64,000 bases of DNA from a bacterium (GTDB lineage Bacteria; UBA8248; JACPRG01; G963555815): contig CBDHDG010000007.1 in the NCBI GenBank assembly GCA_965261595.1, positions 768,001-832,000 on the forward strand, given 5' to 3'. Shown here in pieces: positions 2,728 to 9,511 of the stretch; position 1 is the stretch's first letter; every line of letters starts with the position of its first letter. The translations under genes were made by a program, and so were the position numbers. Below the pieces are notes generated by a model. It was not told where the DNA came from. It saw only the letters and a list, made by a program, of their open reading frames with translations, and did not search any database.

Positions 2728-3900
2728 ATGCCCGCCTGGCTCAAGCGCAGCCTTCTCAATCTCCGGCGGAGGCCGTTCCGCACCGGTCTCGTTTCGATTT
2801 TTCTCGCCCTTGTGATCGGCCTGTTCACCGTCATGGCGGTCATCAATCGTTTCTCGGCGGAACGTTTCGCCGAGTTGGAAGGGGCCTTGGAATCATCCAT
2901 TGACGTTCGTCCGATTGGCTCTCTGGGGCTCGGCGGCAGGCGCTCCCGGCCGCTGGCTTTTGGTCTTGAGGGCGAAATCCGGAAGCTCTACGCGAATGTC
3001 CAAGTGGACCCGTATCTCATAAGCCGGGAGTTCAAGGGTGACCGAACGGTATTTTATGTCGGCGTTCGGCCGGGCTCGCCTCTTCGGCCGGTGGGCGATC
3101 CCGAGTCCATGAGTGAGCGCCTGGCCGCCGGGCGCGTCTTCCGAGCCGATGAGGCGGACAAGCTTGTGGCCGTCCTGGGTTTGGAGGCGGCGCGCCGCCA
3201 AGGGATCGATCCGTCTACCTTGAACCATCCGGTGATCGTCACAATCCGGGACAAAACGTGGCGGGTCATCGGTCTGTTCGACGGCGGCAACGGTTTTGTG
3301 AATGGCCAGGTCTTTCTTCCGTTTGAATCGATGCGGCGGCGATTCAACGCGGCGGGACTGTCCCGCATTGTCGTTCGGGCTTCCTCGGCGGCTGAGGCGG
3401 AGAAGACGGCCGATGCCTTGCGCATCAAGCTGGCCGGCCAGGCGGATGTTGTGACGAATCGGCCGGCGGTAAAGATTGCCCAGCGATTTCTCGCCGGCAT
3501 CTCCGGGGCGACGCGGACGGGCGCGCTGTTATTTCTGATCGCCGGCGCCCTGGTCGTCATCGGCGCCATGGTGTTGGCCTTCCGTGACCAGCAACGCGAA
3601 ATTGGCGTGGAAAAGGCGCTGGGGGCCTCGAATTCGGTGATCGCCGTACGGCTCCTGGCGGAGTCGGTGTTTCTCACGACGCTCGGCGGGATGGGCGGCC
3701 TGGCCGTCTCCTGGCTCGGGCTGGCGATCTACGCGCGAAGTTGGACGAGCATCAAGTTCGGATTGATCCGCACCCCTTTGCCTCCGCTGACCGTTGCGGT
3801 CATTCTTCTGACGTGCTTGTTGCTGGGCGCGGTGGGGAGTCTCTATCCCATCCTCCGCAGCCGCCGGCTCAATCCGGCTGTCATCCTGCGTGAAGAGTGA
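2728..3900 (+). CDS. MacB/FtsX-family ABC transporter permease
   Basis: N-terminal TM, periplasmic domain, REIGVEKALGAS motif, C-terminal LNPAVILREE. Confidence 0.9.
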   Translation: MPAWLKRSLLNLRRRPFRTGLVSIFLALVIGLFTVMAVINRFSAERFAELEGALESSIDVRPIGSLGLGGRRSRPLAFGLEGEIRKLYANVQVDPYLISREFKGDRTVFYVGVRPGSPLRPVGDPESMSERLAAGRVFRADEADKLVAVLGLEAARRQGIDPSTLNHPVIVTIRDKTWRVIGLFDGGNGFVNGQVFLPFESMRRRFNAAGLSRIVVRASSAAEAEKTADALRIKLAGQADVVTNRPAVKIAQRFLAGISGATRTGALLFLIAGALVVIGAMVLAFRDQQREIGVEKALGASNSVIAVRLLAESVFLTTLGGMGGLAVSWLGLAIYARSWTSIKFGLIRTPLPPLTVAVILLTCLLLGAVGSLYPILRSRRLNPAVILREE

Positions 3901-5200
3901 CCCGGTAATGTTCCGGAAATTCCTTTTGCACTACGCCTGGCGCAACCTCTGGCGCGCGAAAGGACGCACGATTTGGGTCCTCGCCCTCACCGCGCCAATG
4001 TTCCTGTCCGTCTTGATGATGCTCGCCATATCCAGCGCCTTGGACACGCAGGTCCGCCATCTGGGCAGGGGGACCGCCACGTTGATCCAGGTCCGGGCCC
4101 GTGCGGCCTTTGGACATGTCAACCAGGCGGGCGGTCTGAATCGGTTGCTGCCCGCCTCAGCCGAAAGCCGGATCGCACAGATGGATCATGTCGTAAAAGT
4201 TGAGCCGTACCTTGTGGCCATCGAGCCGATCGGGGGTTACTACATGACCCTTCACACCGGTGTGCGGCCGGGCGACGCGCGCCGTCTCGCCACCCATGGC
4301 GAAGTGGGACAGGTGGAAATCGTCGCCGGACGAGACCTGACTTCGGACGATGAGGGAAAGGACATCGCCCTTTTGGGCGTCGCCTATGCCCGGAAGATGG
4401 GGATCACGCCGAAAACATTCCGGCCCGGTGAAACGGTGTTCGTCAAGGCCCCTTTGCACGATGGCGAGCCCGGGGTGATTCAGACGGGGATGCGAACCAT
4501 AGGCGGCCGGCCCTTTCGTCTCGCGGGGCTTTTCACCAGCGGTTACGCCTTCGGCGACAACCAGATGTTTCTCCCCTATGAGACCTTCCAACGCCACTAT
4601 GGCGTCAAGGACAAAATCTCCAAGCTGTTCGTTCGAGTGGATCAGGTTGATCACGTGCCGACCGTGGCCAAAGCCATCCGGGCGAAGTTTCCCGAGCTCG
4701 ACGTAGGGACGCGCAAAGACGGCGCCCGGTTCATGTCGGCCGCCCTCGCGACGATGCGGCGCATCGGGCGAATTTGGGTCGCGGGCATGGTGATTCTCTC
4801 CGGGGCGATTGTTCTCTTTGCCATGCTCCTGGCCGCCGATGAACGCATCCGCGAGTTGGGCACGCTCAAAGCGATTGGCGCGTCCACAAAAGACATGGCT
4901 GTCATTGTCATCGCGGAATCATCGCTGATCGCCGGGATGGGCGCGGCCCTGGGCGGGATGCTGTATGTCTCGTTCGGTCCGGCCCTCGGCCGGGCCTTTT
5001 TCGGCGCGACCCTGGGGGTCTATCTGCCCGGCCAGTACGGGGAAAGCCTCTTGGACAACATGATCTTGCGCTACTCGGTATCCGCCGGATTGATCCTCGC
5101 CCTTGTGATCGCCGCCGCCGCGGTGGGTTTCCTCGGCAGCCTTTATGCCCTATATCGCGCTTACCGGCTGAGCCCGGTCGAGGCCCTGCGACATGGCTGA
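3890..5200 (+). CDS. MacB/FtsX-family ABC transporter permease (second)
   Basis: YAWRNLWR, RELGTLKAIGA, LSPVEALR; start may be ATG 3908. Confidence 0.9.
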   Translation: MKSDPVMFRKFLLHYAWRNLWRAKGRTIWVLALTAPMFLSVLMMLAISSALDTQVRHLGRGTATLIQVRARAAFGHVNQAGGLNRLLPASAESRIAQMDHVVKVEPYLVAIEPIGGYYMTLHTGVRPGDARRLATHGEVGQVEIVAGRDLTSDDEGKDIALLGVAYARKMGITPKTFRPGETVFVKAPLHDGEPGVIQTGMRTIGGRPFRLAGLFTSGYAFGDNQMFLPYETFQRHYGVKDKISKLFVRVDQVDHVPTVAKAIRAKFPELDVGTRKDGARFMSAALATMRRIGRIWVAGMVILSGAIVLFAMLLAADERIRELGTLKAIGASTKDMAVIVIAESSLIAGMGAALGGMLYVSFGPALGRAFFGATLGVYLPGQYGESLLDNMILRYSVSAGLILALVIAAAAVGFLGSLYALYRAYRLSPVEALRHG

Positions 5201-5905
5201 TTCCCCCCCCCCTCCCCGAGAGCCGGCCCCGTGGTCCGGCTGAGCCGCGTGTGGAAGCGCTACCGCCTGGGGACGACGGTTGTCGAGGCCCTCCGGGGGA
5301 TCGATCTCGTCATCCATCGGGGCGAGGTGATCGGCCTCATCGGTCCCAGCGGCAGCGGAAAATCGACCCTCCTGCATATCATCGGCGGGATGGACCAGGC
5401 CGGCGAGGGCGAGGTGAACGTCGCGGGGGAGGACCTTCATCGACTGACGCCCGCCCGCCTGACCGCTTTCCGGCGGGGGAACGTGGGCTTCGTCTTTCAG
5501 GGCTTCAACCTGATTCCGAACCTGACCGCCCTCGAAAACGTCCTTCTCCCGACGGAGTTCGCCGGCGCGCCGCGGAGCTTCTGGAGCGCGTGGGCCTGGC
5601 CGGCCGGATGCGCCACCGGCCGGGTCAGCTCAGCGGCGGCGAGCAGCAGCGCGTCAGCCATCGCCCGGGCGCTCGTCAACCGCCCGACGCTCGTGATGGC
5701 CGATGAGCCGACCGGGAACCTCGACACGAAGACCGGAGCGGCGATTGTCGAGCTGCTCACCTCGCTTGCCGGCGAGCAGACCGTCCTGGTCGCGACGCAC
5801 GATGAGCGAATCGCGCAAAAGGCCGATCGGGTCATCCACCTGTCCGATGGCGATATCGTGAAGGATGAGGGGGTCGCGGCGAAGGCAGGCCGGGCGGATC
5901 TTTGA
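5193..5905 (+). CDS. LolD/MacB-type ABC ATP-binding protein (apparent frameshifts)
   Basis: GPSGSGKST, ADEPTGNLD and THD in one frame; LSGGEQQRV signature in another frame (~5575-5655); poly-C run near the start. Confidence 0.8.
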
Positions 5906-6088
5906 CCGGAATCCGTCATGACCCGCATTTTTCAGGACCCGATTGTTTTGCTGTCGCTCACCCCCGCGATTCCGCCCCCCCCTCCCTCTCCCCCCCCGGG
6001 ACTTCTCGCCGGTCATCAGGGGCGAAGCCGGTTTTGCCTCGCCCTCACCGATGAAATCCGGAAAATACCCCGCCGCGCGAATTTCCCC

Positions 6089-6120
6089 TTGACCCCGTAT
6101 GTCGGTACGGGATTTATATT
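6089..6120 (+). promoter_or_regulatory. MerR-family-type promoter/operator
   Basis: TTGACC, 19-20 bp spacer containing dyad CCGTA-N6-TACGG, then TTATAT/TATATT; resembles the classic mer operator TTGACTCCGTAC...GTACGG. Confidence 0.7.
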
Positions 6121-6142
6121 CAATGTCCGGGGGGATGCGGTG

Positions 6143-8623
6143 ATGACGGAAGCCGAACGGAAGCCGATGGAAAAGCTCAACCTGAAAATCGGCGGGATGC
6201 AGTGCTCCTTCTGCGTCGATAGCATTCACAAGGCCCTCGCCCGCATGAAAGGCGTGGGCGAGGTCGCCGTGAGCCTGTCGCACGAAGAGGCCCTGGTCCG
6301 GTACGACCCGGAGGAGGCGGCGCCCGCCGAGATCGAAGACACCCTGACGAGCATGGGGTACACCGTCCGGGACCCCCGAAAGGTTTTTTCCTTCGAAGAA
6401 GGAGAGGCCGAAGTCCGCCGGCACAGAAACCTGCTTGCGGTGACGGCGGTGTTCATGGCGGCCTCCCTGGGTCTGATGACGCCGATGTGGCTGGGCGTCC
6501 GGCACCCATGGTTCAAGTGGGCGATGCTCGCCCTCGCCCTGGGAATGGTCTTCGGCGTGGGCCGTTCCATCCTGAAGATGGCCTGGGCCGCGCTGCGCCG
6601 GGGCATCCTGAACCAGCACATCCTCATGGAGTTCGGCGCCTTCGGCGGCCTGGCGGGGGGCGCGGTCGGGTTCTTCAAGGCGCCCTGGCCCACGGGAGAC
6701 TTCCTGGGGGCCGCGGTCTTCATCACCGCCTATCACGTCCTCTCGATGTACGTCTCCACGGTGGTCCGGACGAAGAGCTCCCGGGCCATCCGGAAGCTGA
6801 TGGACCTCCGGCCCGCGACGGCCCGCGTCGTGCGCGACGGCAAGGAGGAGGAGACGCCCGTCGAGGAGGTTCGCCCGGGCGACCTCGTGCGCATCCGTCC
6901 CGGCGAAGGCGTCCCCGTGGACGGCGTGGTCGTGGAGGGCCTTTCCGGGGTGGACAACAGTCTCGTGACGGGGGAGTCCATCCCGGTGGAGCGGACCGCC
7001 GGCGATGAGGTCATCGCCGGCTCTGTGAACCAGACCGGAACGCTCCTGGTGAGGGTCACGAAAGTTGGCGAAGAGAGTTTCCTCCAGCGGGTGGCGCGCT
7101 CCATCCAGGAGGCCCGGGCGCTTAAGCCGGGGGTCCTGCAACTGGTCGAGCGCGTCCTGAAATGGTTCGTCCCGGGGGTCCTCATCGCTGCGGGGACGGC
7201 GTTCGCGCTTTGGACCTTCGGGTCCTGGCTGGTGATTGGAGAGCCCAACTTCGGCCGGGCTGTCTTCGCCGCGCTGGCGACGCTGGTGATGGGCTATCCC
7301 TGCGCCCTGGGGATGGCCACGCCCCTGGCGATGATCCGGGGCGGGGGGATAGCGGCCGAGAAGGGTGTCTTGATGCGCTCCGGCGAGGCCTTCCAGGTCT
7401 TCAAGGACGTGCGGAAGGTCGTTCTGGATAAGACCGGCACCCTCACCCGGGGGAGGCCCCGGGTGGTGGATATCGCGGCCGCGGAGGGTTTCCCGGAAGA
7501 ACGCGTCCTGGCCCTGGCGGCGGCGGCCGAGCGCCCTTCGGAGCATCCCCTGGCCCGGGCCATTGTGGAGCGGGCGGCGGCGGCGGGTTATCCGGAGGCC
7601 CGGGATTTCCAGGCCCTGCCCGGACAGGGGATCAAGGCGACGGTGGAGGGCAGACAAGTCCGGGTGGGCAGCCCCCGCTTTCTGGCGGAGGAAGGCGTGG
7701 ACCTGGGCGCGCTCCGGACGCGCGTGGAAGAGATGGAGGGCCGGGGCCAAACCGTCGTCGGGGTGGCCGAGGACGGGCGGGCGGCGGGGATCCTCGCCAT
7801 CGCCGACACCTTGAAAGATGACGCGGCGGAGACGGTCGCCCGAATGAAGGCGGCCGGTCTGGCGCCGGTCATGATCACCGGCGACAACCGGCGGACGGCG
7901 AATGCGGTGGCCGCTCAGGTCGGCATATCGGAGGTCCTGGCCGAAGTGCTCCCCGATCAGAAAGCCGAGCGGGTGCGGGAGCTTCAGCGTCAAGGCCATC
8001 GCGTGGCCATGGTCGGAGACGGCATCAATGACGCGCCCGCCCTCATGCAGTCGGACGTGGGGATCGCCATCGGCGCGGTGACGGACATCGCCATCGAATC
8101 CGCCGATGTCGTCCTCATGGGCGACCGGCTGGGCGGCGCGATGGACGCATACGCCATCGGCAAGAGCAGCTTCCGCAAGACCGTCCAGAACGTCGTCCTG
8201 GCCTTCGCCTTCAACGGCGTCGGCGTCCCGGCGGCGATGACGGGGATCGTCCACCCGGTCATGGCCATGATCGCCATGGCGGCCAGCGTCAGCGCCGTGC
8301 TGTTGAACTCATTCGGCGGGAGGCTTATCCCCCGTGGAGCGGGAAGGAGAGTCGATTCCGGGGCGTTGGCCCTCAGGCCCGCTCCGGCGTCGGCCGGGTC
8401 TTTCGTCTCCGGCGACGCCCGCCTGCTTGCCGTCACCGTGAAAGGCATGCACTGAGGCGGATGCCTCGCGGCCATCGAGCGGGCGCTCGAACCGATCCCC
8501 GGAGTCCACAAGGTGGAGGGAGACGTGAAGACGAAGCGGGTCGAAGTCCTCATCCAAGGGGAGGAGGACGTGGAGGAGGTTTTCCGGGCGTTGGAGCGGA
8601 GCGGGTTTCCGGCGGAGGTCTGA
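6143..8623 (+). CDS. Heavy-metal P1B-type ATPase (CopA-like) with N- and C-terminal HMA domains; probable selenocysteine at TGA 8453-8455
   Basis: GMQCSFC, TGES, YPC, DKTGT, SEHP, GDGIND; frame continues past TGA as GMH*GGCLAAIERAL...GFPAEV to stop 8621-8623, 4 bp before the next ATG. Confidence 0.9.
8475..8490 (+). promoter_or_regulatory. Candidate bacterial SECIS hairpin
   Basis: TCGAGC-GGGC-GCTCGA; G-initiated loop with 25 nt between the UGA and the loop. Confidence 0.65.
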
Positions 8624-8627
8624 AAAG

Positions 8628-9281
8628 ATGTGGGAGGCCGTTCAGTTCGTGGGCGTCCCCCTGGGGTTCGGCCTGATTGGTTTTGTCGAGCCTTGCTCGA
8701 TGGGGGCGAACTTCGTATTTCTCGCTTATCTTCTGGACCGGCCCGCCGCGGAGCGGGTCCGCCACGCCCTCACCTTCGTTCTGATCCGTTCGCTCTTCCT
8801 CGGGCTTCTGGGCGGCGGCGTCGCCTGGGCGGGGGAATCCATCGCGAAGGGCTCTTACCTCTACAGCGCGGGGCTCGGGGGGATCTACATCCTTCTCGGA
8901 CTGGCCGCGCTGGGGGTTCACTTCGGCCTGTTGCGGCTTCCCGCCGGGGACCCGCGGGGCTGGATCGAAAAAAAATCCGGTCTCGCGCTGCCGATGGGGA
9001 TCCTCTTCGGCCTGAGCGCGCCGATTTGCGCGGCCCCCTTGTTTCTGGCCCTTCTGGGGCAGGCGGGCGTGGCGGGCATGGGGAAGGGGTTTCTCTCCCT
9101 CGGCCTTTTCGGGCTCGCCCTGTCGGCGCCGTTCCTGGTCCTCGCGGCCTCGAAGCGGGCCTCGGATCTGCTCTCGCGGGTGGGAAGGCATGCGCCGCGC
9201 ATGACCCTCGTGGCCGGGGTCGTCCTCATCCTGTTGGGCCTTTGGAGCGTCGTCATCGGCTGGAAGGGCCTGCCGGTGTGA
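8628..9281 (+). CDS. DsbD/CcdA-family (cytochrome c biogenesis-type) membrane protein
   Basis: About 6 TM segments with EPC and PIC conserved Cys pair. Confidence 0.75.
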   Translation: MWEAVQFVGVPLGFGLIGFVEPCSMGANFVFLAYLLDRPAAERVRHALTFVLIRSLFLGLLGGGVAWAGESIAKGSYLYSAGLGGIYILLGLAALGVHFGLLRLPAGDPRGWIEKKSGLALPMGILFGLSAPICAAPLFLALLGQAGVAGMGKGFLSLGLFGLALSAPFLVLAASKRASDLLSRVGRHAPRMTLVAGVVLILLGLWSVVIGWKGLPV

Positions 9282-9511
9282 GCTCGGGAGACGGCATCTT
9301 ATCGAGGCCCAATCTCAATACCACTTCTCGTATTGAATGCTTCCCCGCGCCGCCGACGATTTCGCCGGCGGGTCCGCCATCAAGTCATATCGCGTTTCGC
9401 GGATCTCGATCAGGCCCATGGGGAACACAATGCCGGGATTTGGCCGGCGCCCGTCCGTTGGGCCGATGATTGCAAGCCGACCGGTTCAATCGACCTGCCC
9501 CGTTCCGGCGT

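Follow-up and report, generated by a model that had tools for sequence, protein, structure and literature searches.

A P1B-type heavy-metal ATPase gene at positions 6143-8623 (+ strand) of the DNA analysed here very probably contains an in-frame selenocysteine (Sec) codon that would be decoded via SelB. The gene lies in a 64,000-nucleotide (nt) stretch of contig CBDHDG010000007.1 of a bacterial genome assembly (GCA_965261595.1), hereafter called the window, and the codon in question is the TGA at 8453-8455, which terminates the open reading frame (ORF) 5918..8455 (+) in the context AAA GGC ATG CAC TGA GGC GGA TGC. An earlier note on this DNA had placed the TGA at the first Cys of a GMxCxxC metal-binding motif, and the sequence indeed reads GMH-TGA-GGC-GGA-TGC; the TGA replaces that Cys (GMH-U-GGC), leaving a UxxC motif. 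When the TGA is read as a residue, the protein continues as ...LLAVTVKGMH-U-GGCLAAIERALEPIPGVHKVEGDVKTKRVEVLIQGEEDVEEVFRALERSGFPAEV, and the full selenoprotein gene has 826 codons plus a stop, with Sec at codon 771 as the first metal ligand.

The frame past the TGA stays open for 55 sense codons (8456-8620), up to the TGA at 8621-8623, and encodes a complete HMA-like domain, as had been noticed earlier. The 80-residue read-through piece alone matched the Pfam HMA profile PF00403 over its residues 18-76 (E 4.5e-14, 53 bits against a cut-off of 24.8), and about 51 of the matched residues fall after the TGA. This C-terminal HMA domain occupies 8432-8608, or residues 839-897 of the read-through protein when counted from the first ATG of the open frame (5918); the start used by gene callers is ATG 6143. 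Its PDB relatives were HMA domains of Cu-ATPases and chaperones. The whole protein scored 559.8 bits against TIGR01525 (heavy-metal P-type ATPase; cut-off 346.25) and contains E1-E2_ATPase and Hydrolase domains together with two HMA stretches. The N-terminal HMA domain (6179-6367), seen by profile and translation, has an ordinary Cys motif (GMQCSFC, from 6194), and a motif scan located the transmembrane metal site YPC at 7295-7303, where classical Cu/Zn pumps have CPC. In the protein database the pump is stored as a 770-residue form (P0003) that begins with MTEAERKP and ends with ...VKGMH, as against 826 residues with Sec at residue 771, confirming that standard pipelines truncate the protein as the earlier note expected. 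The short form retains every core domain and the N-terminal HMA. The TGA at 8621-8623 is the true terminator, because the homologous stop is TAG in one relative (G008) and a codon other than TGA in two metagenome loci (L159 and L160). TGA otherwise terminates genes here, as it ends the pump gene and the next gene where relatives carry TAG or another stop. It is the in-frame HMA domain past the stop, together with its conservation in other genomes, that exceeds chance.

We compared the pump tail among relatives in a first search of 41 genomes (the source genome, G000, and 40 relatives) and in a later search of all 51 genomes of the phylum at E <= 1e-20. In the first search, the five best foreign matches covering the tail (58-77% identity) each contained a single TGA, and that of G005 (69%) had none. 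In the later search, the tail was found in 8 of the 51 genomes, with one TGA in seven (G000, G003, G025, G043, G032, G008 and G012) and none in G005; the tails of the TGA-bearing genomes were 55-71% identical to that of the window. A codon-level alignment placed the TGA at the identical codon (ATG CAC TGA) in all seven carriers, and a same-codon TGA was also present in six metagenome loci, while G005 has TGC at the Sec column (TIHCEGC). Among 120 listed database homologues, the window's own cluster included, 110 have a Cys-type C-terminal HMA (105 with HCxxC), nine end exactly at ...[GS]MH, and one does neither. The Cys/TGA pairing that the earlier note anticipated was thus found, with TGA in six further genomes and Cys in G005 and in those 110 homologues. 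The tail is readable to its end in six genomes (the G012 contig ends 30 nt after the TGA). In all six, which represent three families of the phylum, the downstream frame of 55-58 codons is intact, and the TGA is never swapped for another stop. Furthermore, 14 of the 21 invariant-residue columns downstream of the TGA vary in synonymous codons among these genomes, indicating that the downstream frame is under protein-level selection.

The codon itself was compared with independent sequencing runs. Fourteen runs from five studies share half or more of the words sampled from 7900-9300, and 4 of the 24 listed runs (X4, X7, X9 and X16) were compared as contigs, not raw reads. In the DNA runs X4, X7 and X9, from three studies, a 9788-nt contig spans 7900-9300 with two differences (8079 T>G and 8883 A>C) and an unchanged TGA, which answers, at the level of contigs, the question of TGA versus TGC or TGT raised in the earlier note. 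The RNA library X16 gave a 218-nt contig spanning 8397-8614 with no difference. We do not take this contig as proof of transcription, because the library may contain DNA.

Profile searches of the source genome (6.17 Mb in 7 contigs) against curated cut-offs detected the whole Sec machinery. SelB scored 389.9 bits (cut-off 242.25), SelA, encoded by the adjoining gene, 550.5 bits (cut-off 267.9) and SelD 329.9 bits (cut-off 125), and ARAGORN found a tRNA-Sec with anticodon tca at C6:845075-845171. SelA was also above cut-off in all six foreign Sec-form genomes and in four other relatives tested; because those four relatives have it as well, its presence is a necessary condition that does not discriminate.

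As described in the earlier note, a TCGAGC-GGGC-GCTCGA hairpin (8475-8490) follows the TGA with its loop 25 nt downstream. The arms TCGAGC (8475-8480) and GCTCGA (8485-8490) enclose the loop GGGC (8481-8484), and 25 nt (8456-8480) lie between the UGA and the loop. Its free energy is -8.9 kcal/mol in the window and -10.0 to -10.2 kcal/mol in relatives, where the stem has 7 rather than 6 bp. The published model of the bacterial Sec insertion sequence (bSECIS), as given in the Fig. 2 legend of PMC13188914, demands a loop of 3-9 nt, a stem of 4-16 bp, a G in the first two loop positions, a distance of 16-37 nt from the UGA and a minimum free energy of -7.5 kcal/mol or lower. The hairpin lies within every one of these constraints (loop of 4 nt starting with GG, stem of 6-7 bp, spacing of 25 nt, -8.9 to -10.2 kcal/mol), in line with the earlier suggestion of a SECIS element. 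In addition, the codons ATC GAG CGG GCG CTC, which make up the loop and most of the two arms, show no difference among the seven genomes and the six metagenome loci, whereas the codons flanking the hairpin vary synonymously. A single codon is retained at only 38 of the 127 invariant-residue columns of the tail alignment, and the hairpin codons form the longest such run. The metagenome variant L160 has GGG in place of GAG, by which the residue changes from E to G and an A-U pair becomes G-U. Taken together, the gene has the features of a bacterial selenoprotein gene, i.e. a Sec/Cys pair, a conserved UGA followed by a selected frame, a hairpin within the bSECIS constraints, and the machinery genes, supporting the Sec read-through that the earlier note proposed.

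Several points weigh against this interpretation. The 68-nt fold was not better than shuffled sequences (z = -0.82), and comparable hairpins (perfect stem of at least 6 bp, loop of 3-9 nt with G in its first two positions and lying 16-37 nt downstream) follow 3.1% of all window positions; taken alone, the hairpin is unremarkable against chance. Its stem is invariant, so that compensatory covariation is absent, and the nucleotide invariance could be partly due to the conserved residues AIERAL and codon bias in a GC-rich genome. A scan of 8200-8800 against Rfam at E <= 10 gave two chance matches and no SECIS family. The Sec-form carriers are all kin from one small phylum, so that the seven genomes represent fewer than seven independent events. 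The contigs of X4, X7 and X9 are identical to each other and may come from related samples, and the X16 contig may derive from DNA. Finally, the decoding of the UGA as Sec is inferred from sequence comparison.

Four other explanations were considered. If termination at the TGA were normal, the pump would have 770 residues and the downstream HMA would be the decaying remnant of a nonsense mutation. Translation table 11 does read the codon as a stop, public gene calls stop there in the 9 homologues mentioned above, and the short protein has every core domain. A remnant, however, would not remain open and conserved as this frame does across three families, with synonymous differences at most of its invariant residues and without any exchange of the TGA for another stop, and we consider this explanation very improbable. 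A second possibility is selenium-independent read-through of the UGA, in which a near-cognate tRNA (Cys or Trp) or some other recoding signal would give a Cys- or Trp-containing domain. Leaky UGA read-through occurs in bacteria, the hairpin could stimulate it by stalling, and Se incorporation is here deduced by comparison rather than observed directly. On the other hand, the UGA coincides exactly with the position of a metal-ligand Cys, as is characteristic of Sec/Cys pairs; selA is present in all seven carriers and the full machinery in the source genome; the hairpin fits the bSECIS constraints; and the source genome has a TGA in two more HMA metal motifs. Selenium-free read-through is accordingly very unlikely.

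A single base difference would suffice to turn a true TGC or TGT into the observed TGA, but an assembly or sequencing error would have to recur in the contigs of three other DNA runs, in six other genomes and in six metagenome loci; the error is refuted as far as assemblies can show, and we give it next to no chance. It is also hardly credible that the pump ends at the TGA and the downstream stretch encodes a separate small HMA protein. Stand-alone 70-residue HMA genes do precede distant relatives of the downstream gene, but here neither the first strand of the domain (LLAVTVKGMH) nor its first ligand lies beyond the TGA, no in-frame ATG, GTG or TTG occurs in the first codons past it, and the sole ORF listed nearby (8461..8676) is in another frame. 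Moreover, the Sec domains scored 55.7-61.6 bits on a profile of 110 ATPase tails versus 18.9-30.0 bits on a profile of 17 stand-alone HMA proteins.

With the TGA taken as a Sec codon, the gene at 6143-8623 would yield an 826-residue P1B-type ATPase whose last ~70 residues form a cytoplasmic HMA domain with Sec as first ligand. SelD and SelA would make Sec-tRNA(Sec), which SelB would deliver while presumably binding the hairpin at 8475-8490 with the ribosome on the UGA; after Sec insertion, 55 more codons would be translated up to the stop at 8621. Failed insertion would give a 770-residue pump short of the C-terminal HMA only. A Se-dependent mix of long and short pump forms, as raised in the earlier note, is plausible because termination at the UGA leaves a complete pump with an N-terminal HMA; note that the same would be expected of any gene with a late Sec codon. 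P1B pumps have both their termini in the cytoplasm, which is therefore the side that the Sec/Cys site faces. The U/C pair may form a soft-metal site, for which Cu(I), Ag(I) and Hg(II) are candidates, and a selenolate would be expected to hold soft metals tighter and exchange them faster than a thiolate. We do not assign the transported metal because the pump has YPC, not CPC. The C-terminal HMA would serve as a regulatory or hand-off site, probably together with the CcdA-like protein encoded 4 nt downstream.

A Sec-containing metal ATPase is already a known kind. "Cation-transporting ATPase E1-E2, UxxC", with the exemplar ABB15669.1, has been published as a predicted selenoprotein family, according to the sections covered of PMC13188914, PMC9312934, PMC2398784 and PMC1976440, and the covered part of Wu et al. 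(2005, PMC1287953) describes two transporters with Sec, CHY0860 and CHY0565, in C. hydrogenoformans. Since Sec-containing P1B-ATPases stand in selenoprotein surveys, the window pump is not a new kind. As far as these sections go, it shares with the published family the P1B-type ATPase, the UGA in a UxxC metal motif, the hairpin right behind it and the existence of Cys homologues. It differs in having the Sec in a C-terminal HMA, a YPC motif, a host of another phylum and a linked CcdA-like gene; the covered parts of the published accounts are silent on the position of the HMA. We found no description of a C-terminal Sec-HMA on a pump in the parts of the literature covered. In a search of 401 genomes of the phylum of genome G051, eight of the regions flagged with a TGA were checked and showed no Sec-HMA pump, the TGA being a natural stop or lying upstream in five and no in-frame TGA being present in three; this search says nothing about C. 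hydrogenoformans.

Other HMA-type selenoproteins are represented in NCBIfam by NF041115 ('UxxU_metal_bind' metal-binding (seleno)protein) and NF045683 ('MerT/CopZ fusion-like heavy metal transport selenoprotein'). They resemble the window domain in placing Sec in the CxxC metal loop of an HMA fold, and the source genome also has small HMA genes of the UxxU and UxxC types. However, these proteins are small and either free or fused to MerT, whereas the window domain forms the C-terminal end of a pump and carries a single Sec (UxxC) instead of two; the window HMA domains scored 83.3 bits against NF041115, below the cut-off of 95. Cys-type members of the pump's own subfamily, such as CopAL6, have the same N-terminal HMA, eight-helix pump and C-terminal HMA, with an [IM]HCxxC tail in 110 of the 120 listed homologues, and differ by Cys instead of Sec and by a linker ~20-25 residues shorter. 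Archaeoglobus fulgidus CopA likewise has N- and C-terminal metal-binding domains, with a CPC motif. What is new here is a pump of the YPC subgroup with an HMA domain at both ends and a mosaic Sec tail, which co-occurs with a CcdA-like gene in seven of seven genomes.

The pump belongs to a subgroup with its own motifs. An N-terminal GM[QS]CSFC is common to the 120 listed homologues; YPC was found in 106 of the 121 subfamily proteins scanned, the other 15 not being matched by the pattern used, and FN in 115 of the 121. MAASV-like motifs and the C-terminal HMA are also shared by the subgroup. CopA-type Cu(I) exporters (P1B-1) are characterized by CPC in the metal-site helix, YN and MxxSS. The window pump has YPC, FN and MAASV instead and thus falls outside P1B-1; it scored 507.6 bits against the CopA equivalog NF007952, far below the cut-off of 1316, and 465.8 bits against the broader TIGR01511, above the cut-off of 397. 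The only paper on YPC pumps that our literature search returned concerns the metagenomic CopAL6, which has YPC and HMAs at both ends and, in the part of that paper covered (PMC11082258), decreased Cu resistance and increased Cu accumulation in an E. coli delta-copA strain. Because CopAL6 lowered resistance and raised accumulation, the YPC subgroup may not consist of plain Cu exporters.

The Sec tail has a single origin and now sits on two separate pump lineages, with a breakpoint just after helix 8, since the trees of core and tail conflict and the identities flip between the two parts. The core tree, from which the tail was removed, included 96 of the 120 proteins (24 were dropped because they were shorter than 700 residues or missed the end-of-helix-8 pattern) and placed eight Sec-truncated forms in two starred clades, each sister to Cys forms. 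Forcing the eight together cost 221 log-likelihood units, with p 4e-26 in an approximately unbiased test whose 32 rows and tested group were chosen after the first tree was seen. In the tail tree, the six readable Sec domains formed one split against 24 Cys tails, with a Shimodaira-Hasegawa-like approximate likelihood ratio support of 99.8, and this split held without the motif and hairpin columns. In its core, the window pump shares 58-92% identity with its Cys sisters and 40-76% with the clade-B Sec form; in the last ~90 columns, the identity is 32-39% to the Cys sisters and 63% and 44% (two tail windows) to the Sec form. The linker is ~20-25 residues longer in Sec forms than in Cys forms. 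We also considered that the Sec tail had been grafted from a pair of a free HMA gene and a CcdA-like gene, and rejected this, as the Sec domains score far higher on the profile of pump tails than on that of free HMAs (values given above) and group with pump tails (99.6). A further 80 loci from a tail-alignment profile search of genome contigs were discarded as generic P-type ATPase patterns, not orthologues; two of them, L049 and L074, served only as entry points to another phylum.

The gene linked to the pump (8628-9281, + strand) starts at an ATG separated by 4 nt (AAAG) from the stop at 8621-8623, a gap also given in the earlier note, and encodes a 217-residue CcdA/DsbD-TM-like membrane protein with the motifs VEPCS (C23) and PxCAxP (C134), as judged by alignment and fold model. 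The product itself gave no Pfam match, and among 38 aligned relatives 11 matched DsbD_TM (PF02683; best E 2.5e-6) and 7 DsbD_2 (PF13386; best E 1.5e-6). Across the family, VEPCS is conserved in helix 1 and PxCAxP in helix 4. An AlphaFold2 model of moderate confidence (predicted local distance difference test score 62, predicted template modelling score 0.50) was used; an earlier model from 5 sequences, with a local score of 48.5, was discarded. In Foldseek, the best match of the model was CcdA (PDB 5VKV; E 0.022, TM-scores 0.59/0.58 over 217 columns), the other listed matches having TM-scores of 0.31 or lower. According to the model, the protein would resemble CcdA, a membrane electron transporter of the DsbD_TM superfamily, in its six helices and its two conserved Pro-flanked Cys, one each in helices 1 and 4. 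Unlike CcdA, it is encoded beside HMA domains and metal pumps instead of genes for cytochrome c maturation.

Homologues of the CcdA-like protein at E <= 1e-10 were present in 8 of the 51 genomes of the phylum, namely all seven Sec-form genomes and G042, a 67% complete genome of the same genus as three Sec-form genomes; the Cys-form genome G005 had no homologue at this threshold. The gene adjoins the pump in five genomes, lies 3.2 kb off on the same strand in G008, and is on another contig in G012, where the pump contig ends. In three genomes (loci L013 of G003, L014 of G025 and L015 of G032), only the terminal TGA and one codon separate the pump from the CcdA-like gene in the same frame; in the window the downstream gene is shifted by one base. 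We rejected a second read-through into the CcdA-like gene, given this shift of frame in the window and the stops other than TGA in L159, L160 and G008. The in-frame junction probably reflects tight translational coupling instead.

We then surveyed 57 metagenome loci with relatives of this gene, 53 of them with at least 300 nt of upstream sequence, using crude patterns for HMA and pump. A Sec-HMA pump tail lay right upstream in 5 of the 53, and in a sixth locus, L163, which has only 274 nt upstream. By the same patterns, 21 of the 53 had a Cys-type HMA upstream, mostly a free 70-residue GMHCxGC protein, three had a small CxxC protein and 24 had none of these. Near the distant relatives we found MerR-family regulators, a true MerA (L201, 828.5 bits, cut-off 600) and P1B pumps, the latter directly downstream in at least 10 loci. 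The adjacency of HMA and CcdA-like genes is thus recurrent, and metal or electron exchange between their products may underlie it. In L170 (2764-3486), a 240-residue MerR-family regulator with a fused C-terminal HMA stands just before the CcdA-like gene and a P1B pump. In L175 (3063-3374), L195 (2475-2741), L213 and L214, a small protein with CxxC (KVEVFSAGCxxC) precedes the CcdA-like gene instead of an HMA; a thioredoxin-like cytoplasmic partner would fit. An exported protein ending in ...VVNMP(F/M)(L/V)(T/M/K)WPGG(K/R)R recurs beside the pump family and CcdA-like genes, downstream of the Cys-form pump in L017 (G005) and in L164 (1147-1875), L174 (2222-2848) and L198 (17-427). The DUF7482 profile gave no match in the source genome, and the control gave no match anywhere either.

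Combining these observations, we tentatively propose, as a possibility that falls short of the likeliest outcome, that the YPC pump, the HMA domain (free, fused to MerR or fused to the pump) and the CcdA-like two-Cys protein form one metal-handling system, in which the CxxC or UxxC of the HMA would exchange metal or reducing equivalents with the Cys pair. The first ligand would have become Sec in one lineage of the phylum. Recombination would later have transferred this tail, complete with its SECIS and the following CcdA-like gene, to a second, separate pump lineage. The Sec codon lies 56 codons before the end, and the amount of selenium available would therefore determine how many pumps carry the coupling domain relative to those that lack it.

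The window pump and at least eight further database clusters are stored at least 56 residues too short, ending in ...[GS]MH; surveys of metal domains and selenoproteomes miss these tails because the entries end at the TGA. The pump may add a case of selenium acting as a metal ligand rather than a redox catalyst, here in the YPC subgroup. The strict pairing of the Sec tail with the CcdA-like protein, along with the HMA genes before its distant relatives, points to an undescribed HMA partner, and the mosaic history indicates that a Sec codon and its SECIS can move between genes as a unit.

The source genome contains other candidate Sec codons outside the window. Its selD gene (G000:C5:89297-90265, - strand) has one in-frame TGA (GGUGSK), which would give a Sec-containing SelD. 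Two further HMA genes have a TGA in the metal motif (C6:973759-973944 and C6:976305-976478): a lipoprotein-like HMA gene with GMT-U-GA-U and, behind it, a MerT-like ORF containing a CC pair, and a small HMA protein with GMT-U-PK-C, followed by a MerA-like oxidoreductase that matched in two pieces (197 + 87 bits, below the cut-off of 454). These genes and their neighbours look like a mer-like locus made with selenoproteins; a search for MerA in the source genome gave no match above cut-off. The SECIS regions of selD and of these HMA genes are dissimilar to the hairpin at 8475-8490, which is usual between genes according to the literature. As an in-genome comparison of SECIS elements we also searched for Sec-dependent formate dehydrogenase (TIGR01553), and none of the 17 matches had a TGA or exceeded the cut-off.

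As for the surroundings of the pump, no metal regulator was seen within 16 kb. An 866-codon open frame at 5654-8254 (- strand) runs opposite the pump gene and is most likely a GC-rich shadow frame. Directly upstream, 2728-5905 (+ strand) contains two FtsX/MacB-type permease genes and an ABC ATPase gene.

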